64,000 bases of DNA, taken from contig JACTMI010000008.1 of NCBI GenBank assembly GCA_014584695.1, forward strand, positions 15,333 to 79,332, in the 5' to 3' direction. Positions 1 through 63,060 of this stretch are shown here, in pieces (positions within the stretch are counted from its first letter, which is position 1; each line of letters starts with the position of its first letter). The stretch is from Acidobacteriota bacterium. Its GTDB lineage: Bacteria > Acidobacteriota > Thermoanaerobaculia > Multivoradales > JAGPDF01. Under the pieces are notes generated by a model. The model did no database searches, was not told the origin of the DNA, and saw only the letters and a list, made by a program, of their open reading frames with translations. Made by a program: the position numbers and the translations under genes.

Positions 1-162
1 CTGGAGCTGCTGGTCGCCGGGGAGACCCTGCGGGCGAGCGCGGAGCGGTTGGGCGTCAGCTTCCACACCATCGACAACCACGTCCGCAGCATCTACTGCA
101 AGCTGCACGTCAACAGCCGCGCCCTCGCGGTGGCGAAAGCGATCCAGGAGGGACTGGTCTGA
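1..162 (+). CDS. LuxR/GerE-family transcriptional regulator, C-terminal HTH fragment (5' end outside window)
   Basis: In-frame translation from base 1 gives ...LELLVAGETLRASAERLGVSFHTIDNHVRSIYCKLHVNSRALAVAKAIQEGLV* with stop TGA at 160-162; classic GerE/LuxR HTH signature (VSxxTIxxHxxxIxxKL). Confidence 0.6.
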   Translation: MELLVAGETLRASAERLGVSFHTIDNHVRSIYCKLHVNSRALAVAKAIQEGLV

Positions 163-188
163 GCCGCAGGACAGGTCGCGACCGCGTG

Positions 189-2861
189 CTAACCGAGCGG
201 TTCGAAGCGCCCCTGGAAGAAGCGTAGCTCGGGCGGCTCGTAGGTGAAGCGCAGGCCGCGGATCGCGTCACGGCGCTGGTGGAGGCGGATGATCCCTTCC
301 GCCACGGCGCGCAGGTGGTCGTCCGAGTAGACGCGCCGCGGCAGCGTCAGCCGGACCAGCTCGAGCGCCGGCCGGTAGTTCACGCCCGCGTGGTCACGGC
401 CCTTCGAGACGTTGCCGCGCTCCATCGCCCGGACGCCGGTCTCGAGATAGAGCTCGCCCGCCAGCCGCTGCGCCGGGTACTCGTCCTGGTCGACGTGCGG
501 CAGGAAGCGCTTGGCGTCGAGGAAGACCGCGTGGCTGCCGGTCGGACGCACCACCGGCACGCCGGCCTCCTCCAGCCAGCCCGCCAGCCGCGCCGCCTGC
601 TCCACCCGCGAACGAATGTAGTGGTCGTCGACCATCTCGCGCATGCCCCGGGCCATCGCCGCGAGGTCGGCCGCGGGCAGGCCGCCATCGCGCACTCCGC
701 CTTCGTAGATGCGGATCTTGGCCTCCGCCTTGCGCGCCCAGTCGGCGTTGTTCTTGAAGGCGAGCAGACCGCCGATGTTGATCAGGTAGTCCTTCTTGCC
801 GGAGACGGTGCAGCCGTCGCCGTAGAGCATCATCTCGCGCAGGATCTCCTTGACCTTGGTGGCGTGGAAGCGCGAATCGTGCTTCTGGATCAGGTAGGCG
901 TTCTCGACCGCGCGCGTGGCGTCGAACATCACCGGAATGCCGTGAGAGCTGCAATAGGCGTAGACCTCGCGCAAGTTGTCCATCGACACCGGCTGCCCGC
1001 CCGCCATGTTGACCGAGTGCTCGAACGAGATGTAGGCGATCTGCGCCGCGCCGTGCTCGCTGACCAGGGCATCGAGCTTGGCGAGGTCGATGTTGCCCTT
1101 CCAGGGGAAATCCGAGGCGGGATCGTGGGCCTGGTCGACGATGACATCGACGAACACGCCGCCCGCCATCTCCTGGTGCACCTTGGTGGTGGTGAAGTAC
1201 ATGTTGCCTGGGACCAGCTGGCCGGGGCGGATCATCACCTCCGACAGGATCTGCTCGGCGGCGCGCCCCTGGTGAGTTGGCAGCACGTGCTCGTAGCCGT
1301 AGCAGTCGCGCACCGCGGCGGCGAGCTCGAGAAAGGCGTCGGTGGTCCCCGGGGTCGGCAGCGCGGCGTCGTAGGCGGCCCATTGGGTGGTCGACATCGC
1401 CGTGGTGCCGGAATCCGTCAGCAGATCGATCGTCACGTCGGCCGAGCGCAGCAGGAAGGTATTCCAGCCCGCCTCGCGAATGGCGCGCGCGCGCTGCTCC
1501 CGCGTCGTGCGGGCGATCGGCTCGAGGGTGTGCACGACGTAGGGGTCGCAGTCGAAGGCGAAGGCGTCGAGATCGGCGAAGAAGGAACGGAAGCGGAGCT
1601 GGTCGTGCCACTCGCCGTTGGCCTCGACTTCGAGTGGCGCCACCTTCTCGCGCTGGCGGTGGAGGGCGATCAGGGCGTCGGCCACCTGGTCGAGCTGGGT
1701 GTTGGTCATCGCCAGGCGCGGGATCTGGACCGGCAGCAGGGTGTCGCGACCGACCAGGCCCTGCGCCATCGCCCGCACGCCGGCGGTCTGGTAGAGCGCG
1801 CAGGCGAGGGCGTGCGCGGGGTGCTCACCGGCCTGGGGCAGGAACTCCGCGGCCTTGACGTAGGCCCCGTCGCAGCCGCGCTCGACCGGCACGCCCGCCG
1901 CGAGCAGGCGGGAGCTGAAGCGCTCGGTCTGGTGCATCACCCACTGCACCCCCGCCTCGTCGCACATCTCGGCCAGACCGCGCGCCAGCACCTCCATCGT
2001 GCGGCCGGCCATGCCGCCGTAGGTGTGCAGCCCCTCGAACACCACGACGTCGTTGATGAAGTGCTCGTGGTCGGCCGGGTTGTCGGTGGCGAGGAAACCG
2101 CCGGTATTGCAGCGCGGGTCCTGGGCGCCGTCCATCAGCACGACGTGGGCGGTCTTCGCGATCGCCCGCACCAGCTCGGCGATGGTGCGGTCGGCCATCC
2201 CCGGCTCGTGCCGCTGGACGAACCAGGCGTTTTCGATCACTCGCGAGACGTCGACGACCAGGCGCAACCCCGCGCGGTCCGCGAGCGCCCGCACGGCTCG
2301 CAGGTTGGCGAGGCTGAACGGATGCTGGCCGTCGGCGAACGCCTGGCAGCCGATGAACGGCGGCTTGCCCGTGCGGACGATCTCCTCGAGCCGGGCCAGG
2401 TCGAAGTTGCCGGTGAAGACGGGGGCGCCATGGTCCCGCGCGTCGAGGATCTCGATGCCGCGCGGCGCGTGGAGGTCGACGCGGCCGCGCGCGTTGGAGG
2501 GCAGGGACTGCCCCGCCTTGGCGAAGGCGCGCACCAGCAGCTTCACCGCCCCCAGCGAGTTGTGGGTCGGGCAGACGTAGGTGTGACCGAGCACGCGCGT
2601 GATCACCGCGTTCAGGGTCTCGAAGTTGCGCGCCCCGGCGTAGGCCTCGTCGCCGATCAGCTGGCCGGCGAGCTGCTCCTGGGTCATCGCGCTGGTGCCG
2701 TAGGAGACCATGTCGAAGGTCACCTGCGAGGGCGTCAGCTGGAAGACGTTGAAACGCGCCATCGAGAGGTTGCGCTTGCGTTCCTCGAGCGACGGGAACG
2801 CGATCGGACGCACGGTCTTGATCTTGTGCGGTTCGTGCAGCGGCAGAGCGAGGTTCGGCAT
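189..2861 (-). CDS. Tandem-domain beta-eliminating lyase (tyrosine phenol-lyase/tryptophanase family), 890 aa; N-terminal domain degenerate, C-terminal domain intact
   Basis: 890-aa ORF. The C-terminal half aligns end-to-end with TPL/TnaA (NTFLLRSADVTIDLLTDSGT, PTHQGRAAEQIL, GNMYFTTTKVHQE, PLP-lysine motif SGKKD, FLDAKRFLPH, RLTLPRRVY). The N-terminal half is a second copy with the lysine motif replaced by DGAQD and the substrate loop degenerate. RBS AAGGGGA lies upstream of the ATG at 2861. Confidence 0.85.
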   Translation of the reverse strand: MPNLALPLHEPHKIKTVRPIAFPSLEERKRNLSMARFNVFQLTPSQVTFDMVSYGTSAMTQEQLAGQLIGDEAYAGARNFETLNAVITRVLGHTYVCPTHNSLGAVKLLVRAFAKAGQSLPSNARGRVDLHAPRGIEILDARDHGAPVFTGNFDLARLEEIVRTGKPPFIGCQAFADGQHPFSLANLRAVRALADRAGLRLVVDVSRVIENAWFVQRHEPGMADRTIAELVRAIAKTAHVVLMDGAQDPRCNTGGFLATDNPADHEHFINDVVVFEGLHTYGGMAGRTMEVLARGLAEMCDEAGVQWVMHQTERFSSRLLAAGVPVERGCDGAYVKAAEFLPQAGEHPAHALACALYQTAGVRAMAQGLVGRDTLLPVQIPRLAMTNTQLDQVADALIALHRQREKVAPLEVEANGEWHDQLRFRSFFADLDAFAFDCDPYVVHTLEPIARTTREQRARAIREAGWNTFLLRSADVTIDLLTDSGTTAMSTTQWAAYDAALPTPGTTDAFLELAAAVRDCYGYEHVLPTHQGRAAEQILSEVMIRPGQLVPGNMYFTTTKVHQEMAGGVFVDVIVDQAHDPASDFPWKGNIDLAKLDALVSEHGAAQIAYISFEHSVNMAGGQPVSMDNLREVYAYCSSHGIPVMFDATRAVENAYLIQKHDSRFHATKVKEILREMMLYGDGCTVSGKKDYLINIGGLLAFKNNADWARKAEAKIRIYEGGVRDGGLPAADLAAMARGMREMVDDHYIRSRVEQAARLAGWLEEAGVPVVRPTGSHAVFLDAKRFLPHVDQDEYPAQRLAGELYLETGVRAMERGNVSKGRDHAGVNYRPALELVRLTLPRRVYSDDHLRAVAEGIIRLHQRRDAIRGLRFTYEPPELRFFQGRFEPLG

Positions 2862-3029
2862 GGCGGGAGCTCCCCTTCGCAGTCCCCGATAGTCTAGTAA
2901 GCCAGGACGCCGAAATTGAACCCCTCCTGCTAGGCTGTTCCCGGCATTCTCCTAAAACACTTAACTCTCACCAGCAAGAGACACAACGATCTATCGTCCA
3001 GATCCACGCCACGCCCCAGCACGCCCCCG

Positions 3030-3660
3030 CATGCCCCCGTACGCCACCTCCATGCCACTCCACGCCGCTCTGCTCCGCTCCTTCCTGACCAGACTGCGCG
3101 CCGGCGACACCGAGGTGCCTGCTGCAGCGAGAAGCAAAGGCCTTCTGTTGAAGGGGGTGGCCTCCGCCACGAACGCGGCGAGCTCGCAACGGCTGCTGCA
3201 GCGGCGACACTCCTCCCCTTCTATGGAGCTTCTGAGCGCTTCCTCCCCAGCGAGCGCTCAGCTCGGAGAGCGACCCTCCCGAGGTGCGGTGGCTCGAGCG
3301 CAGGTGGTCGAGCAGGCGAAAAGCAAAAGCGTGCTGTTGAAGGGGGTGACCTCCGTCACGAAGGCGGCGAGCTCGCAACGGCTGCCGCAACGGCGACACT
3401 CCTCCCCTTCTATGGAGCTTCTGAGCGCTTCCTCCCCAGCGAGCGCTCAGCCCGGAGAGCGACCCTCCCGAGGTGCGGTGGCTCGAGCGCAGGTGGTCGG
3501 GCAGGCGAAAAGCAAAAGCGTGCTGTTGAAGGGGGTGACCTCCGTCACGACGGCGGCGAGCTCGCAACGGCTGCTGCAGCGGCGACACTCCTCCCCTTCT
3601 ATGGAGCTTCTTCATCGCCCGGCCCACCGATCCGTCCGTGCCCGCAGCGGAGGGCTGTGA
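3030..3660. repeat. Tandem repeat locus 1: about 3.4 copies of a ~180-bp unit (same family as loci at 35994, 62526 and 50555; inverted orientation here)
   Basis: Motif ctatggagcttctgagcgcttcctcccc recurs at 3231/3411/3591 (period 180). The reverse complement matches the locus-3 unit core (agaagctccatagaagggg...gtcacccccttcaacag). A GA-rich tract (3690-3790) flanks it. Confidence 0.8.
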
Positions 3661-3790
3661 CTCACCGTTGGGCAAGAGATGAGCGATGAAGGAAAGTCAG
3701 GTGATCAGGAATGCGGGGGAGTTGGAGAGTAGGAAAGAAGGCAGGTAGGAAAGTGGGCAGGTAGGAAAGAAGGCAGGGAAGGGGGAGCTC

Positions 3791-4291
3791 ATGAGCCCGG
3801 AGTCGGCACGGCTGCTCGATGGGACGGGATGGCGGATTCTGGAGGAGCTGCAGGAGGACGGGCGGATGACGTTCACGGAGCTCGGCCGGCGGGTGGGGCT
3901 GTCGACGCCGGCGGTGGCGGAACGGGTCCGGCAGCTCGAGGCGGCCGGGATCGTGCGCGGCTTTCGCGCCGAAATCGATCTCGCCCGCGTCGGCTTGCCG
4001 GTCCTCGCGGTGGTCCGCATGAGCGTCGTGGGCGACGTGCTCGGACGAATCACCGCCGTCGCCCAGGAGCTTCCCGAAGTGCTCGAGTGCCACCGCGGCA
4101 CCGGCGCCGACTCCTTCATCATGAAGGTGGCGGTCGCCTCGGTCGAACAGCTCGAGCGCTTGATCGACCGCCTGACCCCCTTCGGCACCACCTCGACCTC
4201 GATCGTCCTCTCGTCACCGGTGCCGCGGCGGACGCTGCGGGCCACGACGCCGCCAGCTCCCGCCCACCCACCGCCTCGCCGCCGACGCTGA
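3791..4291 (+). CDS. Lrp/AsnC-family transcriptional regulator
   Basis: 166 aa; an N-terminal HTH (LDGTGWRILEELQEDGRMTFTELGRRVGLSTPAVAERVRQLEAAGIV) plus a RAM/ACT-like C-terminal domain. ATG at 3791 follows GGGGGAG. Confidence 0.85.
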   Translation: MSPESARLLDGTGWRILEELQEDGRMTFTELGRRVGLSTPAVAERVRQLEAAGIVRGFRAEIDLARVGLPVLAVVRMSVVGDVLGRITAVAQELPEVLECHRGTGADSFIMKVAVASVEQLERLIDRLTPFGTTSTSIVLSSPVPRRTLRATTPPAPAHPPPRRRR

Positions 4292-4374
4292 ACGCGACCG
4301 CTCGCCGCCGTCGCCCCGCCCCCCATCCTCCATCCCCCCTCCCCGCTCCTCGCTCCTCGATCCCCGCGTGGGGC

Positions 4375-4403
4375 TTGACAGGGGGCGGGAGCCCGCCTAT
4401 CAT
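4375..4403 (+). promoter_or_regulatory. Sigma70-type promoter TTGACA-N17-TATCAT placed 10 nt upstream of the TolC-like ATG (near-leaderless transcript)
   Basis: TTGACA at 4375-4380, a 17-nt GC-rich spacer, TATCAT at 4398-4403, and ATG at 4414. It is preceded by a ~55-nt C/T-rich tract (4315-4367). Confidence 0.5.
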
Positions 4404-4413
4404 TCATCGCTGT

Positions 4414-5775
4414 ATGGTCATATATCGACACATTGCCAGCCTGGCGGCGGCCGCGCTCGTCGGCGCCGCGACCCTCTCCGCCCAAGCCCCAGCGGCCCTT
4501 TCGCTCGCCGATGCGCTGGCGCGCGGGCGCTCCGGCGCCCGTGAGGCGGTGGCCGCCTCGGCGCGCCAGCGGGCCGCCGAGGCGCGCGCCCGCGAGGCCG
4601 CCGGCCACCGTCTGCCGCAGGTCCGGCTCTCCGAGCAGTGGATCCGTACCGACTCGCCCGCCGATGCCTTCGGGCTGTTGCTCAACCAGGAGCGCTTCTC
4701 CTTCCCCGACTTCGTCTCCGGGGATCCCAACTCCCCCGACGCGCTCGAGACCGCGATCACGCGCCTCGAAGTCGAGGTCCCGATCTGGACCGGCGGGGAG
4801 CTCTCGACTCGCATCCGGCAGGCCCGTCTCGCCGCCGAGGCGGCCGCGGAGAGCGCGGCCCGCGCCGGGGATCGCGCCGCCGTCGACGCCGCCGAATCCT
4901 GGATTCGGCTGGCCCAGGCGCGCGAGGGCGTGGCCCTGCTCGAGAAGGCTCGCGACACCGTCGCCGCCCACGTCGATCTGGCGCGCAACTACGCCGCGCA
5001 GGGGATGCTGGTCCGCTCCGAGCTGCTGCGCGCCGAAGTCGAGCTCGCGAAGCTCGACGACCTGCTTTCGGAGGCGCGCGGCAATGCGCGGGTGGCCGAG
5101 GCGAATCTCGGCTTCCGCATCGGCGAGCCGATCGATACCACCTACGCGCTCGCGCCGCTCGCCGAGCCCCCCGCGCTCACCCGCGACCGGCAGGGGTGGA
5201 TCGCCGCCACGGCCGCCCGCCGCGACCTCGCCGGGGCGCGCAAGCTGCTCGAGGCCGGCGAGCTCGAGGCCAAGGCGATCCAGGGCGGGCTGCTGCCCCG
5301 CATCGGCGTCGTCGCGCGCCACGATCTGGTCGACGACCAGCTCTTCGGCTCGCACGGCGACTCGACGACGATCGCCGCGATGGTGACCTTCGACCTGTTC
5401 GATGGCGGCAAGAAGCGCGCGGCGCTCGCCGCCGCCCGGGCCGAGGCCGAGGCCGGCCGCGCCGACGTCGAGCGCTTCGCCGAGGGAGTCCAGCTCGAGG
5501 CCAAGCACGCCTTCGAGACCGCCGCCGTCGCGCTCGAGCGTCGAGCCACCGCCGCCGCGGCGCTCGCCGCCGCGGACGAGGCGGTGCGCATCGTCGAGGA
5601 CCGCTTCCGCGCCGGCGTGGTCAAGACCACCGACCTGCTCGACGCCACCACCGCCCGCCGCGAGGCCGAGATGCGCGAGCTGGTCGCGCGCGCCGACGCC
5701 TGGCTCGCCCAGCTCCAGCTCGCGCTCGCCGCCGGCGAGCGACCCGAATCCGTGCTCGCATCCGTCCAACCGTGA
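4414..5775 (+). CDS. TolC-family outer membrane efflux protein (OMF component of the RND system)
   Basis: 453 aa starting MVIYRHIASLAAAALVGAATLSAQA (signal peptide). Two-repeat OMF architecture with conserved LSLADALARG..., RLEVEVPIWTGGEL and FDGGKKRAA segments. In frame with ORF 3829..5775. Confidence 0.85.
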   Translation: MVIYRHIASLAAAALVGAATLSAQAPAALSLADALARGRSGAREAVAASARQRAAEARAREAAGHRLPQVRLSEQWIRTDSPADAFGLLLNQERFSFPDFVSGDPNSPDALETAITRLEVEVPIWTGGELSTRIRQARLAAEAAAESAARAGDRAAVDAAESWIRLAQAREGVALLEKARDTVAAHVDLARNYAAQGMLVRSELLRAEVELAKLDDLLSEARGNARVAEANLGFRIGEPIDTTYALAPLAEPPALTRDRQGWIAATAARRDLAGARKLLEAGELEAKAIQGGLLPRIGVVARHDLVDDQLFGSHGDSTTIAAMVTFDLFDGGKKRAALAAARAEAEAGRADVERFAEGVQLEAKHAFETAAVALERRATAAAALAAADEAVRIVEDRFRAGVVKTTDLLDATTARREAEMRELVARADAWLAQLQLALAAGERPESVLASVQP

Positions 5776-5795
5776 ACCCGAGGGAGACCCATCCC

Positions 5796-6887
5796 GTGAA
5801 GATCCGCCTCGCCTTCGCCTCGCTCTCGCTCGCCGCCCTGGCGCTCGCCGCCTGCGGTGGGCGTCCGGCCGTGGTGCCCGCGACCGAACCGGCGCCCGTC
5901 TCGGCGCGCGTCGCGGTCGCCGAACGCGCCGCCACCGAGCGCCGCACCGAGCTCGCCGGCACCGTCGCGGCCGAGAGGTCGACCGCCGTCTCCTCCCGCG
6001 TCATGGCGCTCGTCACGGCCGTTCCCGTCGCGCTGGGCGACGAAGTCCGCGCCGGCCAGACGCTGGTCGCGATCGACCCCACCGCCGCCGAGGGCCAGGT
6101 CGCCCAGGCGCGCGGCGCGCTGGCGCAGGCCGAGGCCGCGCTCACTCTCGCACGGCGCAACCACGAGCGCTTCCAGGCGCTCGCCGCCACCCGGTCCGCC
6201 TCCGAGCTCGAGGTCGACCTCGCGCGCATGCAGCTCGAGCAGGCCGAAGGGGCGGTCGAGCAGGCCCGCGGCGCGGTCGCCGCGGCGAGCTCGGTGGCCC
6301 GCGAGTCGCGCGTCGTCGCGCCGTTCGCGGGGCGGGTCTCGGCGCGCCTAGTCGAGGTCGGCGATCTGGCGGCGCCCGGACGTCCGTTGGTGATGATCGA
6401 GTCGCGCGGCGGCCGGCGGCTGGTCGTGGCGGTGCCGGAGACCCTCGCCGGCGGCGCGGCCCTGGCCCCCGGCGCTCCGATCGCGGTGACTCTCGACGCC
6501 CAACCGACGCTCGGCGAGCTCGCCGGCCGCGTCGCCGAAATCTCCCCCGGTCCCGACCCGGTGACCCACGCCTACACCGTCAAGATCGACCTGCCCCTCG
6601 ACCCCGGCGTGGCGGTGCCGGCGGGCGCCGCCGGACGGGCGCACGTGCCGGCCGGCGAGCGCGCCACCGTGCGCGTCCCGCGCGAGGCGTTGATCGAGAG
6701 CGGCGGTCTCACCCTGGTCGTCGTGCGCGACGACGCGGGCAGGGCGCAGTCGCGCGTCGTCACCGTCGGTGCCGCCGCCGCCGACGGCCGCGTCGAGATC
6801 CTCTCCGGCCTCGCTGGCGGCGAGTCCGTCGCGCTCGGTCTCGCCGTGGCACCCGCCGCCGGCGCCCGCTTCGAGGTGGTGCCGTGA
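5796..6887 (+). CDS. RND efflux membrane fusion protein (periplasmic adaptor, HlyD/AcrA family), lipoprotein
   Basis: GTG start at 5796 after GAGGGAGA. Lipobox LAALALAACGG, biotinyl-lipoyl-like and beta-barrel MFP segments (GQTLVAIDP, VVAPFAGRVSARLVEVGDL). Its stop overlaps the next gene's start (GTGA). Confidence 0.85.
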   Translation: MKIRLAFASLSLAALALAACGGRPAVVPATEPAPVSARVAVAERAATERRTELAGTVAAERSTAVSSRVMALVTAVPVALGDEVRAGQTLVAIDPTAAEGQVAQARGALAQAEAALTLARRNHERFQALAATRSASELEVDLARMQLEQAEGAVEQARGAVAAASSVARESRVVAPFAGRVSARLVEVGDLAAPGRPLVMIESRGGRRLVVAVPETLAGGAALAPGAPIAVTLDAQPTLGELAGRVAEISPGPDPVTHAYTVKIDLPLDPGVAVPAGAAGRAHVPAGERATVRVPREALIESGGLTLVVVRDDAGRAQSRVVTVGAAAADGRVEILSGLAGGESVALGLAVAPAAGARFEVVP

Positions 6888-9800
6888 GCCCCGACGAATC
6901 GACGCGGCCCGGTGTCGGGAGCGGCGCGGGTCTGCCCGAGCGGACGCGACGCGAAGCGCTCCGGCTGCGCCAGACCCGCAAACCGCTCGGCTTCGCCGGC
7001 AAGGTCGCCGCCGCCTTCCTCGACTCGAAGCTGACCCCTCTTCTGGTCGTCGCGTCCCTGCTGCTCGGTGCCTTTGCGGTGCTGGTGACGCCGCGCGAGG
7101 AGGAGCCGCAGATCAAAGTGCCGATGGTCGATGTCTTCGTGCAGCTGCCCGGCGCCACCGCCGAGGAGGTCGAGCGCCGGCTGGTGACACCGCTCGAAAA
7201 GGCGCTGTTCGAGATCCCCGGCGTCGAGCACGTCTACTCGACCTCGCAGCCGTCCGGCGGCATGATCATCGTGCGCTACCTGGTCGGCACCGACCCGGAC
7301 CGCGCCGCGCTCGCCGTCCACACCAAGCTGGCGGAGAAGGCCGCCGAGCTGCCTGCCGGCGCGCCGCCGCCGTTGGTCGTGCCGCGCGGCATCGACGACG
7401 TGCCGGCGCTCGCCTACACCCTCTGGTCGGAAACGGCGACGCCGCTCGAGCTCCGGCAGGTCGCGCAAGAGCTGCGCGCCGAGCTGGTCCGCCATCCGCG
7501 GGTCGCCCAGGTCCACGTCTTGGGCGGAGTGCGGCGCGCGATCACGGTCCGCTTCGACCGCGAGCGCCTCGCCGCGCACCAGGTCTCGATCCTGCAGGTC
7601 TACCAGGCGCTCGCCGGCCTCGATTGGAAGCTGCCCGCGGGCAGCTTCGCCGCCGGCGACGTCGACACCGAGGTCGAAGTCGGCGCCCTCTTCCGCTCCG
7701 CCGACGAGGTCGCCGCCGCGGTGGTGGGCGTCTACCCGGACGGCGCCGGCGGCCGCCGCCCGGTCTACCTGCGCGACGTCGCCACCGTCGCCGACGGTCC
7801 CGACGAGCCCGCCCAATACGTCTGGATGACCGCCGGCGCCGCCGGCGCGCACAAGCGGCTGCCGGCCGGCCTCGACACCCCGGCGGTGACGCTCGCCATC
7901 GCCAAGAAGCCCGGCACCAACGCCGTCGACCTGGTCGCGGAGCTCGACGCCCTGGTGGCGCGGCTGGCGGGCCCGCTGCTGCCGGCCAACGTCGAGATCA
8001 CCAAGACCCGCGACTACGGCTTCACCGCCGACGAGAAGTCGAGCGAGCTGATGAAGCACCTCGGGCTCGCCACCCTCTCCGTGGTCTTGCTCATGGCGCT
8101 CGCCCTCGGGCGCCGCGAGGCGGTGGTGGTGCTGGTCGCCGTGCCGGTGACCCTGGCGCTGACCCTGGCCTCTTCCTACCTGTTCGGCTACACGCTCAAC
8201 CGGGTGACGTTGTTCGCGCTGATCTTCGCCATCGGCATCCTGGTCGACGACGCCATCGTTGTGGTCGAGAACATTCACCGCCACTTCCAGCTCGGCTGGA
8301 CCCACCCTCGCCACGCCACCGTCTACGCCACCGACGAGGTCGGCAACCCGACGATTCTCGCCACCTTCACGGTGATCGGCGCCCTGCTGCCGCTCGCTTT
8401 CGTCTCCGGATTGATGGGCCCCTACATGCGGCCGATCCCGATCAACGCCTCGGCGGCGATGCTCTTCTCGCTGATCGTGGCCTTCGTCGTCTCGCCGTGG
8501 CTCACCTACCGGCTGTTCCGCAAGCACGCCGAGGCGATGGCCTCGGGACAGCACGACAAGCCCGGCGCGGCGACCGAGCAGGAGGGCCGGCTCGACCGGC
8601 TCTACCAGCGGATCTTCGCGCCGTTGCTCGCCTCGCGCCTCAAGCGCTGGGCGCTGCTCGCCGGAGTCGCGATCCTGCTGGTCGCGTCGGTGATGCTCTT
8701 CCCGTTCCGCTTCGCGGCGGTCAAGATGCTGCCGCACGACAACAAGAGCGAGCTCCAGGTGGTGATCGACATGCCCGAGGGCACGACCCTCGAGCGGACC
8801 GCCGCGGTCGCCCGCGAGCTGGCGATGACCGTGCGCTCCCTGCCCGAAGTCACCGACGTCGAGACCTACGTCGGCACGTCGGCGCCGTTCAGCTTCAATG
8901 GCCTCGTGCGTCACTACTTCCTGCGCTCGGGCCCGCTGGTGGCCGACCTGCAGGTCAACCTGCTGCCCAAGCACGATCGCAAGCGCGCCAGTCACGACTT
9001 CGCCAAGCAGCTGCGGCCGCTGCTGGCGCCGATCGCCGCGCGGCACGGCGCCAACGTCAAGGTCACCGAGGTGCCGCCGGGGCCGCCCGTGCTGTCGACG
9101 CTGGTGGCCGAGGTCTACGCGCCGACTCCGGCCGAGCGCCTCTCCCTCGCCGAGCAGGTCAAGGCGATCTTCGAGAGCACGCCCGGCGTCGTCGACGTCG
9201 ACTGGTACGTCGAGGGCCCCGGTCCCAAGCTCGAGCTCGAAGTCGACCGCGAGAAGGCGGCGCGCGCCGGCGTCTCACCAGAGGTCGTCGCCCGCACGCT
9301 CCGGGTGGCGCTCGCCGGCGCCGACGCCGCCCACCTCTCGGATCCGCGCGCGCGCGAGCCGGTGCCGGTCACGCTCCGTCTCGACCGCGCCCAGCGCTCG
9401 GGCGCGGCGGAGCTGCTGGCGGTCGACGTCCACGGCGCGGATGGCCGCCTGGTGCCGCTCTCCGAGCTGGTGCGGCCGGTCGAGACGGTCCGGGCGCCGT
9501 TCGTCTACCACAAGAACCTGCGGCCCGTGACCTACGTGCTGGGTGACGTCGCCCCCACCAGGCCGGGCAGCTCCGCCGAGTCACCCGTCTACGCGATCGC
9601 CGACATGGGGGAGCGCATCGGCGCGCTGCGTGACGCCGCCGGCCGGCCGCTCGAGGTCCTCTTCTCCGGCCGCCCGGCCGACGGCACGCGCTCGGCGCTG
9701 GTCTGGGACGGCGAGTGGCAGGTGACGCACGACGTCTTCCTGGACATGGGGATCGCCTTCGCCGCCGTGCTGGTGCTGATCTACCTGCTGGTCGTCGGCT

Positions 9801-10264
9801 GGTTCCGCTCTTTCGTGACGCCGATGATCATCATGGCGCCGATCCCGCTGACGCTGATCGGCATCGTGCCGGCGCACGCCCTGGGCGGGGTCTTCTTCAC
9901 CGCCACCTCGATGATCGGCTTCATCGCGCTCGCCGGCATCATCGTGCGCAACTCGATTCTGCTGGTCGACTTCGTCAACCTCGAGCTCGAGGCCGGAGCG
10001 CCACTCGCGGAAGCCGTGACCAAGGCGGCCGCCGTCCGCTTCCGGCCGATCGCGCTCACCGCCGCGGCGCTGGTCGTGGGCGGCGTCGTCATCCTCCTCG
10101 ACCCGATCTTCCAGGGGCTCGCGGTGGCGCTCATCTCGGGCGTCGTGGTCTCGACCGCGCTCACCCTGGTGGTCATCCCGCTCCTCTACTACATGTACGT
10201 CTCGACCGTCGGCGTCGCAGCCGTCGCGCCCGCCGCCGACCGAGAATCCGGAGGTGAAGCATGA
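6884..10264 (+). CDS. RND family efflux transporter permease (AcrB/CzcA-like), about 1126 aa
   Basis: 12-TM RND topology with two large periplasmic loops. Motifs FAIGILVDDAIVVVENIHRH and NSILLVDFVN. GTG at 6884 overlaps the upstream stop; in frame with ORF 5402..10264. Confidence 0.9.
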   Translation: MSPDESTRPGVGSGAGLPERTRREALRLRQTRKPLGFAGKVAAAFLDSKLTPLLVVASLLLGAFAVLVTPREEEPQIKVPMVDVFVQLPGATAEEVERRLVTPLEKALFEIPGVEHVYSTSQPSGGMIIVRYLVGTDPDRAALAVHTKLAEKAAELPAGAPPPLVVPRGIDDVPALAYTLWSETATPLELRQVAQELRAELVRHPRVAQVHVLGGVRRAITVRFDRERLAAHQVSILQVYQALAGLDWKLPAGSFAAGDVDTEVEVGALFRSADEVAAAVVGVYPDGAGGRRPVYLRDVATVADGPDEPAQYVWMTAGAAGAHKRLPAGLDTPAVTLAIAKKPGTNAVDLVAELDALVARLAGPLLPANVEITKTRDYGFTADEKSSELMKHLGLATLSVVLLMALALGRREAVVVLVAVPVTLALTLASSYLFGYTLNRVTLFALIFAIGILVDDAIVVVENIHRHFQLGWTHPRHATVYATDEVGNPTILATFTVIGALLPLAFVSGLMGPYMRPIPINASAAMLFSLIVAFVVSPWLTYRLFRKHAEAMASGQHDKPGAATEQEGRLDRLYQRIFAPLLASRLKRWALLAGVAILLVASVMLFPFRFAAVKMLPHDNKSELQVVIDMPEGTTLERTAAVARELAMTVRSLPEVTDVETYVGTSAPFSFNGLVRHYFLRSGPLVADLQVNLLPKHDRKRASHDFAKQLRPLLAPIAARHGANVKVTEVPPGPPVLSTLVAEVYAPTPAERLSLAEQVKAIFESTPGVVDVDWYVEGPGPKLELEVDREKAARAGVSPEVVARTLRVALAGADAAHLSDPRAREPVPVTLRLDRAQRSGAAELLAVDVHGADGRLVPLSELVRPVETVRAPFVYHKNLRPVTYVLGDVAPTRPGSSAESPVYAIADMGERIGALRDAAGRPLEVLFSGRPADGTRSALVWDGEWQVTHDVFLDMGIAFAAVLVLIYLLVVGWFRSFVTPMIIMAPIPLTLIGIVPAHALGGVFFTATSMIGFIALAGIIVRNSILLVDFVNLELEAGAPLAEAVTKAAAVRFRPIALTAAALVVGGVVILLDPIFQGLAVALISGVVVSTALTLVVIPLLYYMYVSTVGVAAVAPAADRESGGEA

Positions 10265-62374: not shown

Positions 62375-62525
62375 GCGACCACTCCTCCGTGTCTCCGCTC
62401 CAGGCACACACTCTCCGGGAGTGAACCCTCGGAGCGAACCGAGAGGAGAGGACGATGGCGATCCGGATCGTGCAGCTCGGCAGTCCGCGGGCCGCGGGCC
62501 CGGCTGGTACGGCCAGGTGCGATGA

Positions 62526-63060
62526 CGGCTGCGACCGAAGAGAAAAGCTCCATTGAAGGGAGCAGTAGTCGCCGCCGATTCGAGCGTTGCGAGTTCGCCA
62601 CCGCCGTTCCTGTAGTCACCCCCCTTCAACAGAACGCCTTTCACTTCGCCTCGCCCCCATCCGGAGCTCCGTCGGAGCCGCAGATGCAACAGTTGCGACC
62701 AGGTGCGACAGCCGCGGCGACCGAAGCGAGAAGCTCCATTGAAGGGAACGTGTGTCGCCGTCGAGCCGCGCTTTGCGAGCTCGCCACCACCGTGCCTGGG
62801 GTCACCCCCATCAACAGAACGCTTTTCTCTACGACTCGCCCCCATCCAGAGCTCCGTCGGAGCCGCAAGCGCGGCTGGTGCGACCAAGTGCATCGTCCGC
62901 GGCGACGGAAGCGAAAAGCTCCATTGAAGGGAGCGGTAGTCGCCGCCGGTTCGAGCGTTGCGAGCTCGCCACCGCCATTTCAGGAGTCACCCCCTTCAAC
63001 AGAACGCTTTTCTCTGTGCCTCGTCCTCCACGCACGCTCCCGTCGGTCCAGAGGCGCCGC
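62526..63060. repeat. Tandem repeat locus 3: about 3 copies of a ~180-bp unit, each a MITE-like module with ~20-nt imperfect terminal inverted repeats (AGAAAAGCtccaTTGAAGGG ... CCCTTCAAcagaacGCTTTTCT)
   Basis: Unit starts (gaccgaag(a/c)gagaagctccattgaaggg) at about 62531, 62718 and 62895. Periods are 187 and 177, not multiples of 3. Confidence 0.8.

Follow-up and report, generated by a model that had tools for sequence, protein, structure and literature searches.

Tyrosine phenol-lyase (TPL) and tryptophanase (TnaA) are textbook pyridoxal 5'-phosphate (PLP) enzymes, which have found industrial use (L-DOPA, tyrosine analogues) and have been studied as sources of phenol and indole. Their subunits of about 456–471 amino acids (aa) form homotetramers, in which identical subunits pair so that each active site combines the cis residues of one subunit with two trans tyrosines from its partner, one a general acid and the other a phosphate binder. 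In the TPL structures of Milic et al., Glu69 reportedly coordinates K+ from across the interface, and Met288 reportedly belongs to the lining of the partner's phenol pocket. The trans action of a tyrosine, by which one subunit serves the site of the other, has been described for the TPL/TnaA family (PMC11301627, PMC2770544). For example, Tyr74 and Tyr307 of one subunit of Escherichia coli TnaA form hydrogen bonds with the PLP phosphate of the neighbouring subunit, and the Y74F variant has an activity of 0.2 versus 45.7 U/mg (PMC2770544). Then, could the two halves of such a site be distributed over two domains of a single polypeptide? Here, we analyze a window of 64,000 nucleotides (nt) from an Acidobacteriota bacterium (contig JACTMI010000008.1, positions 15,333 to 79,332 of the forward strand), in which one gene encodes an 890-aa protein composed of two tandem TPL-like domains, termed the N domain and the C domain. 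As judged from the residues that each domain has kept, the product is probably a natural single-chain, pseudo-heterodimeric TPL with one composite active site.

The reading frame of the gene begins with ATG and runs for 890 codons with zero internal stops in the translation, and a purine-rich AGGGGAG lies about 8 nt 5' of the start codon (coordinates of this and all other features of the gene are listed in Table 1). The C half (about residues 436–887) matches solved TPLs with E values of about 1e-150 and about 51% identity, spanning TPL residues 3–454, while the N half alone (residues 1–435) aligns full-length to TPL residues 6–438 with an E value of 2e-60. The two halves are 30% identical to each other over 432 columns (E value 7e-51), and Pfam PF01212 (Beta_elim_lyase) matches the whole protein in two stretches with 309 bits. 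Either half also passes NF009709, the model of the TPL/TnaA subfamily (cutoff 285), on its own, the N half with 297 bits and the C half with 532 bits; among the curated models, this generic one is the only model that the N half passes. No linker, stop, start codon or ribosome-binding site was found at the junction. The N domain ends in ...QLRFRSFFADLDAFA and the C domain begins with FDCDPYVVHTLEP. The helix-strand motif that closes the N domain, QLRFRSFFADLD (cf. QLRFFTARFD in TPL), leads immediately into the N-terminal arm of the next domain, DPYVVHTLEP (cf. EPFRIKSVE in TPL). The original prediction, made from the letters of the DNA, had read this stretch as a single polypeptide of two TPL/TnaA domains, the second of which has no start or ribosome-binding context of its own, and both statements hold, given the uninterrupted frame, the full-length matches of the two halves to TPL and the bare junction. 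Among the PDB matches to the fusion halves, there is no entry that is a tandem.

Both halves were mapped onto the numbering of Citrobacter freundii TPL, for which the reference is identical to that of the PDB alignment over residues 6–438, and invariance was counted in a set of 121 orthologous sequences that are at least 69% identical. The C domain retains Thr49, Ser51, Gly52, Gln98-Gly99-Arg100, Phe123, Thr124, Asn185, Asp214, Arg217, Ser254, Lys256, Lys257, Asn262, Met379, Arg381, Arg404, Phe448 and Phe449 of TPL, and all these 20 cis positions are invariant among the orthologues. In the numbering of the fusion, they comprise the complete PLP-binding set (K690, D647, R650, Q531-G532-R533, S687, N618 and F556) as well as the tyrosine-specific set together with the carboxylate-binding Arg (T557, R815, F881, F882 and R837). 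The residues that a canonical subunit lends to its partner are absent from the same domain, where Glu69, Tyr71, Met288 and Tyr291 of TPL correspond to Pro502, Pro504, Gly722 and Asp725, respectively; no orthologue of the set has Tyr at position 504, and all of them have Asp at position 725.

The N domain exhibits the reciprocal pattern. Its PLP/substrate site has been lost through the replacements Gln98 to Asn, Gly99 to Ser, Arg100 to Leu, Ser254 to Asp, Lys256 to Ala, Lys257 to Gln247, Arg381 to Gln and Arg404 to Pro as well as the deletion of Phe123/Thr124, so that this half has neither the lysine for the Schiff base nor the Arg and Ser that contact the phosphate, and the Arg that binds the carboxylate is gone as well. 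Its equivalents of the four lent residues, Glu72, Tyr74, Leu278 and Tyr281, are all kept and are invariant in the 121 orthologues. In the alignment, Y74/Y307 of TnaA correspond to Y71/Y291 of TPL, to Y74/Y281 of the N domain and to P504/D725 of the C domain. That is, the general-acid and phosphate-binding tyrosines occur only in the lysine-less N domain and not in the lysine-bearing C domain. The missing PLP lysine and the degenerate substrate loop that had been noticed earlier in the N domain correspond to DGAQD (244–248), which aligns with SGKKD (687–691), and to the deletion of the F123/T124 (FTTT) loop, and careful alignment finds the N half catalytically incomplete. The accompanying statement that the C domain keeps all hallmark motifs needs to be corrected, since it has DAALPTPGT in place of GDEAYAG and EGGVRDGG in place of EGMPSYGG. 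The expectation of one functional site is supported by these sequence patterns, in which the C domain has lost both trans tyrosines and the N domain retains them invariantly, and the chain almost certainly carries a single PLP site.

Table 1. Positions of the fusion gene, its domains and motifs, and the adjacent regulator within the 64,000-nt window
Feature	Position	Strand	Basis
Whole gene, tandem TPL-like protein, 890 aa	189..2861 (including stop codon)	minus	Uninterrupted ORF (open reading frame); identical protein on 9 contigs
N domain, residues 1–435, full-length TPL/TnaA fold, own PLP site destroyed	1557..2861	minus	Profile and residue mapping; dN/dS 0.15–0.31
C domain, residues 436–890, TPL-like, complete cis PLP/substrate site	192..1556	minus	Profile and residue mapping; dN/dS 0.13–0.24
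Junction, residues 420–448, end of N domain directly into N-terminal arm of C domain	1518..1604	minus	AlphaFold2 pLDDT about 70–86
N-domain GDEAYAG, residues 70–76, Glu72 and Tyr74 (TPL Glu69 and general acid Tyr71)	2634..2654	minus	Invariant in 121 orthologues
N-domain EGLHTYGG, residues 276–283, Leu278 and Tyr281 (TPL Met288 and Tyr291; TnaA Tyr307)	2013..2036	minus	Invariant
N-domain DGAQD, residues 244–248, replaces SGKKD	2118..2132	minus	D244, A246 and Q247 invariant
N-domain PTHNSL, residues 98–103, replaces PTHQGR; phosphate-binding Gln-Gly-Arg lost	2553..2570	minus	Alignment
C-domain DAALPTPGT, residues 498–506, degenerate GDEAYAG; Pro502, Pro504	1344..1370	minus	Position 504 never Tyr
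C-domain EGGVRDGG, residues 720–727, versus TPL EGMPSYGG; Gly722, Asp725	681..704	minus	Asp725 invariant
C-domain SGKKD, residues 687–691, Lys690 predicted PLP Schiff-base lysine	789..803	minus	Alignment
C-domain Phe556-Thr557 (TPL Phe123/Thr124), PLP stacking and phenol binding	1191..1196	minus	Alignment
C-domain Arg815 (TPL Arg381, TPL-specific catalytic residue)	417..419	minus	Alignment
C-domain Phe881-Phe882 (TPL Phe448/Phe449)	216..221	minus	Alignment
AsnC/Lrp-family regulator, divergent from the fusion gene	3791..4291	plus	Pfam HTH_AsnC-type and AsnC_trans_reg

As a control, the same positions were inspected in 40 stand-alone homologues, in which the position of Tyr71 is occupied by Tyr in 33 and by Phe in five, while Tyr291 is present in 33, Glu69 in 36 and Lys257 in all 40. 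The per-column conservation of the N and C domains was then compared in sliding windows over 189 non-identical fusion sequences. The window with the largest excess of N over C corresponds to TPL 67–73, namely GDEAYAG (1.00 versus 0.74), and TPL 288–294 (1.00 versus 0.86) and the N-terminal arm 6–12 (0.96 versus 0.78) are also within the top eight; the windows with an excess of C over N include the Arg381 loop. Ratios of nonsynonymous to synonymous substitution rates (dN/dS) were calculated by the Nei-Gojobori method against eight orthologous loci and are given in Table 1. Both halves are under purifying selection, and the low ratio of the N half shows that the lysine-less domain is maintained and not decaying.

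The fusion is widely distributed. The identical 890-aa product is present on nine independent contigs from at least four sequencing runs, and a word-indexed search of 5.8 billion proteins yielded at least 120 clusters, 69–99% identical, all of which are 887–934 aa long with 99–100% query coverage. At least 507 relatives were detected by an N-domain pattern scan of one genome per GTDB species. The best 80 of them were analyzed; they show 60–86% identity to the N half and all come from metagenome-assembled genomes (MAGs), whose hosts belong to Acidobacteriota (Thermoanaerobaculia, Holophagae and Vicinamibacteraceae), Eisenbacteria, Gemmatimonadota, Myxococcota, Planctomycetota and Lysobacterales, with one labelled Anaerolineaceae. 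The closest among the matches listed are Acidobacteriota MAGs, with 85–86% identity to the N half, from which an origin of the window in this phylum would be probable. An uninterrupted frame of 882–940 codons was found in 72 of the 80 best species genomes, and each of these 72 full-length copies contains exactly one S-x-K-K-D motif per ORF. Of the other eight, six are cut off where their contig ends; in L032, the frame is shifted although the sequence is contiguous, and L078 stops short within the C domain. No junction stop occurs in any of the 80, and so the orthologues carry the same fusion rather than two separate genes. That the fusion is real can be regarded as virtually certain.

It should be noted that two of these loci are anomalous. 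In the Eisenbacteria MAG L078 (2605–5629), the fusion retains only about the first 110 residues of the C domain, and directly upstream of it lies another TPL-like gene, the frame of which is shifted. In another, L032 (4001–6626), the C domain carries on in shifted frames. Both anomalies may be pseudogenes or MAG assembly errors.

The pattern of residues can be accommodated in a simple scheme. An ancient tandem fusion would have been followed by the reciprocal loss of the cis set from the N domain and of the trans set from the C domain. One N domain and one C domain would pair across the canonical catalytic interface of fold-type-I enzymes, with PLP bound to Lys690 of the C domain, and the N domain would supply the general acid Tyr74, the phosphate-binding Tyr281 and Leu278, as well as Glu72, which we take to be the K+ ligand of the composite site. 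The symmetry-related site would be dead, so that there would be one complete site per N and C pair, and a dimer of chains, which would be equivalent to the TPL tetramer, would contain two active sites where the tetramer contains four. The reaction would be the conversion of L-tyrosine to phenol, pyruvate and NH3, and expression would probably be induced via the adjacent AsnC/Lrp regulator. Catalytic residues are likely to come in trans from the N domain. The pairing of the N and C domains at the catalytic interface and the oligomeric state are what we infer from this pattern, and the catalytic pair could lie within one chain or be swapped between chains, both of which would satisfy the residues observed. 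In TnaA, the N-terminal arms form a non-catalytic interface (PMC2770544), and in the fusion these arms are well conserved, that of the N domain especially.

A structural model was built by AlphaFold2 with 70 orthologues, with a mean pLDDT (predicted local distance difference test) of 81 and a pTM (predicted template modelling score) of 0.73. Since a pTM nearer 0.5 would be expected under arbitrary domain placement, the domain packing appears, as judged by the pTM, to be confidently modelled. The sole internal segments with a pLDDT below 50 are residues 72–76 and 278–280 of the N domain and residues 478–489 of the C domain, the last of which represent the Thr49–Gly52 loop; the equivalent loops of the dead site have higher pLDDT. 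By homology, these three loops would converge on one PLP/K+ site, and the model contains neither PLP nor K+; the agreement is suggestive only.

To what extent does this architecture occur beyond the close orthologues? An exhaustive phmmer search with the N half found no stand-alone N-like protein among 1.84 billion representatives. Four short top matches (P0121, P0122, P0123 and P0127) were considered as stand-alone N-like pseudoenzymes and rejected, since they end inside the C domain and are thus truncated fusions. The search also retrieved eleven more distant tandem representatives of 847–928 aa. In all eleven, the N domain contains GDEAYAG and EG[LM]xxYGG, and the C domain contains the cis site and is devoid of Tyr291. 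In a crude neighbour-joining tree of the domains, the C domains of the TPL-type tandems (the query, P0124, P0125, P0126, P0130, P0132 and P0135) constitute one clade nested among the canonical TPLs, and their N domains constitute a separate clade, the branching of which mirrors that of the C domains. Such a topology is in keeping with one old fusion event, after which the two domains diverged together. The six further TPL-type lineages share the reciprocal pattern with N domains only about 35% identical, and the replacement of Lys257 varies across the TPL-type lineages, being Gln, Asp or Glu.

In addition, a second tandem lineage was observed, which consists of P0128, P0134, P0136 and perhaps P0129 (864–909 aa). 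Its C domains have non-TPL substrate residues, with Val, Leu or Trp at position 381 and Ala or Ser at position 448 (Phe in P0129), while its N domains, except the degenerate one of P0134, carry the SGKK lysine and most of the PLP-binding residues. In P0128 and P0136, where the N lysine is retained, Tyr71 of the C domain is retained as well, as it should be in proteins that continue to use both sites; P0129 departs from this rule. This lineage may be a two-site intermediate or an enzyme of different specificity. A further idea, which we consider improbable, is that the tandem TPL/TnaA proteins preserve successive stages between a symmetric enzyme with two sites and an obligate pseudo-heterodimer with one, P0128 and P0136 still having lysines in both domains and the present protein being fully half-dead. 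In the half-dead lineage, the rigidly conserved vestigial N pocket (Asn101, Asp204, Arg207 and Asp244-Gly-Ala246-Gln247-Asp248) would have been re-used as an effector site controlling the neighbouring active site. If true, the chain would contain an allosteric subunit of its own, of which no other case is known in this family.

As for the substrate, the roles of Thr124, Arg381, Phe448, Phe449 and Arg404 in TPL have been described (PMC10170061), while tryptophan indole-lyase (TIL) has Asp133 and His458 instead (PMC11301627). Because the TPL-defining residues Thr124, Arg381, Phe448 and Phe449 are all present in the C domain, beta-elimination of tyrosine is predicted with moderate confidence, and tyrosine is the likely substrate. 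TIGR02618, the equivalog model of TPL with a cutoff of 720.7, gives 869 bits for the whole protein, 617 bits for the C domain alone and 257 bits for the N domain alone. The whole-protein score, although above the cutoff, was rejected as proof of an equivalog, since it is a sum over two domains. Neither domain alone reaches 720.7, and consequently the fusion would be better described as a protein that works like a TPL than as a certified equivalog. Against the equivalog models of TnaA, the C domain alone obtains 418 and 393 bits, far below the cutoffs. Other tandems, including P0128 and P0129 with their non-TPL signatures, also clear TIGR02618 on two-stretch scores. In public records, the fusion is named either “tryptophanase” or “tyrosine phenol-lyase”, and the records are silent on the two-domain architecture. 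The example illustrates how a curated name can result from scores summed over two domains, neither of which would qualify for it by itself.

Several other explanations have to be weighed against a composite tyrosine-cleaving site. For any single metagenomic window, it could be argued that two adjacent TPL-like genes have been joined by a missed stop or frameshift in sequencing or assembly, and in independent assemblies of this locus there is indeed a break some 350 bp upstream of the fusion, though inside a repeat that lies outside the gene. The chance of such an artefact is negligible, and it was rejected on the basis of the identical product on nine contigs from at least four runs, the 120 or more clusters of 887–934 aa, and the 72 uninterrupted frames among 80 loci with zero junction stops; moreover, the reciprocal residue losses make sense only with long co-inheritance of both halves. 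It could also be supposed that the N domain serves only as an appendage, passive or regulatory, and lends no catalytic residue, the catalytic dimer being formed by the C domains of two chains. The C domains keep the large-domain fold and could in principle homodimerise, the inter-domain geometry is a predicted one, and Tyr71 is dispensable for substrates with good leaving groups (PMC3870968). However, a dimer of C domains would be without both trans tyrosines and Glu69, given that none of the 121 sequences has Tyr at position 504 and all have Asp at position 725, and TnaA with the Y74F replacement keeps only about 0.4% of its activity. Nor would an appendage explain why, in a domain that has otherwise lost its site, GDEAYAG and EGLHTYGG are conserved more rigidly than any other motif. 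We therefore regard a catalytic dimer of C domains as very unlikely.

A function of its own may have been gained by the degenerate N pocket, which could bind an allosteric effector or a PLP-independent ligand, and this would be compatible with a composite site at the interface. Asn101, Asp204, Arg207, Asp244, Ala246, Gln247 and Ser53 are invariant in the 121 sequences, the Asp for PLP N1 and the Arg for O3' have been retained despite the loss of the lysine and the phosphate binders, and in dN/dS the N half comes close to the low values of the C half. On the other hand, when sequences are at least 69% identical, invariance may be no more than structural, the gene context of five loci points to no ligand, and both the Lys257 position (Gln, Asp or Glu) and other pocket residues vary in the distant tandems, which argues against one conserved ligand site. 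A separate function of the pocket is doubtful. The composite site might, in turn, act on a primary substrate other than tyrosine, with the protein remaining a beta-eliminating lyase. In favour of this are the score of the C domain below the TIGR02618 cutoff (617 versus 720.7), the identity of only about 51% to characterised TPLs, the change of Met288 to Leu in the trans-donating N domain and the absence of conserved phenol- or tyrosine-related neighbours at the five loci. It is nevertheless unlikely, since TIGR02618 is the best model by far (617 versus 418 and 393 bits), the marker residues that separate TPL from TIL are all TPL-type and invariant, and the C domains, with the signature YTKYRF, nest inside the canonical TPL clade.

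The fusion gene is accompanied by a divergent gene for an AsnC/Lrp-family regulator (Table 1). Of 78 orthologous loci, 14, all from closer relatives, have a divergent AsnC/Lrp neighbour with 69–88% identity at a distance of 105–448 bp upstream. The two genes probably belong together as target and cognate regulator, and the recurrence of the pair suggests amino-acid-responsive control. In the five loci inspected, no conserved operon partner besides AsnC/Lrp was found, and no conserved transporter or phenol-handling gene.

The region between the two genes contains a 189-bp tandem repeat (3127–3611, 2.6 copies, 92–100% identical), by which the intergenic region is lengthened to 929 bp, compared with the 105–448 bp at orthologous loci. 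It is inside this repeat that the independent assemblies of the locus (L001–L004) break. A diverged array with a period of 185 and 2.8 copies is present on the opposite strand at 62501–63015 and is 73–78% identical to the 189-bp repeat. There is no Rfam match in nt 1–4000 of the window and no Pfam match in the ORFs across the 189-bp repeat. Directly upstream of the AsnC/Lrp start, there is also a 16-bp direct repeat (3729–3777, 3.1 copies, GTAGGAAAGAAGGCAG), which might be an operator-like element. Downstream of the regulator, from about 4300 to 10264 on the plus strand, are long ORFs that resemble, by eye, an outer-membrane factor, a membrane-fusion protein and an efflux pump of the RND (resistance-nodulation-division) type.

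The literature, in which subscription papers were only partly covered, yielded no description of a tandem, fused or half-inactive TPL/TnaA, and the fusion has apparently been present in public databases without remark. The design is widespread among uncultured bacteria of soil, including Acidobacteriota, Gemmatimonadota, Eisenbacteria, Myxococcota, Planctomycetota and Lysobacterales. To our knowledge, the assignment of the general-acid Tyr across the interface has until now been based on crystal structures and on mutants of symmetric homo-oligomers. With the cis and trans halves of the site on separate domains, the fusion would be a ready-made asymmetric-dimer experiment, and one site per dimer equivalent would suit work on half-of-sites behaviour and conformational coupling, as well as single-sided mutations of the interface. 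For the evolution of pseudoenzymes, it would be a clean example of subfunctionalisation after tandem fusion, parallel to the P-protein of the glycine cleavage system. The finding is neat for PLP enzymology, and it overturns no principle.

Among the closest known systems, canonical TPL (C. freundii or Erwinia herbicola, EC 4.1.99.2; PDB 2EZ1, 1C7G and 9J3U) is about 51% identical to the C domain, which has all of its cis residues, and the chemistry is presumably the same. However, canonical TPL is assembled from four identical 456-aa subunits, has four equivalent sites and combines the cis and trans residues on every subunit, whereas in the fusion both domains are in one 890-aa chain and the equivalents of Glu69, Tyr71, Met288 and Tyr291 are located on the second, lysine-less domain. 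Tryptophanase (E. coli TnaA, Proteus vulgaris TIL) has the same fold and the same catalytic-dimer logic, and the trans tyrosines have been shown experimentally in TnaA; its specificity residues Asp133 and His458 (TIL numbering) are absent from the fusion.

Similar designs are found in other families of PLP enzymes. The P-protein of glycine cleavage (GcvP) is a fold-type-I PLP enzyme of two homologous halves, either fused (about 950 aa) or split. According to Nakai et al. (2005) and Hasse et al. (2013), it is said to have the PLP lysine in the C-terminal half only and a single site at the pseudo-dimer interface. In its split form, GcvPA and GcvPB are the N- and C-terminal subunits (PMC6522883). 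The fusion likewise has two homologous fold-type-I halves in one chain, one of which bears the PLP lysine, but no sequence homology to the GcvP family, glycine dehydrogenase (decarboxylating), was found. In serine palmitoyltransferase (LCB1/SPTLC1 with LCB2/SPTLC2), a lysine-less partner is required and there is one site per heterodimer. Its chains 4bmk_A and 6m4n_A are among the fold-level matches to the fusion, and the comparison is by fold only, since serine palmitoyltransferase belongs to the alpha-oxoamine synthase family, has a different chemistry and consists of separate polypeptides in most organisms. The Beta_elim_lyase domains embedded in polyketide synthases and nonribosomal peptide synthetases (thiocysteine lyase SH domain, 9CEN) are also TPL-family domains within a larger polypeptide (PMC3870968), but there a single lyase domain without Arg381 is combined with unrelated modules, while the fusion contains two lyase domains and nothing else. 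Therefore, with the same design known in the P-protein and serine palmitoyltransferase, the tandem TPL would represent an independent, family-specific instance of it, with an unusually clear reciprocal signature.

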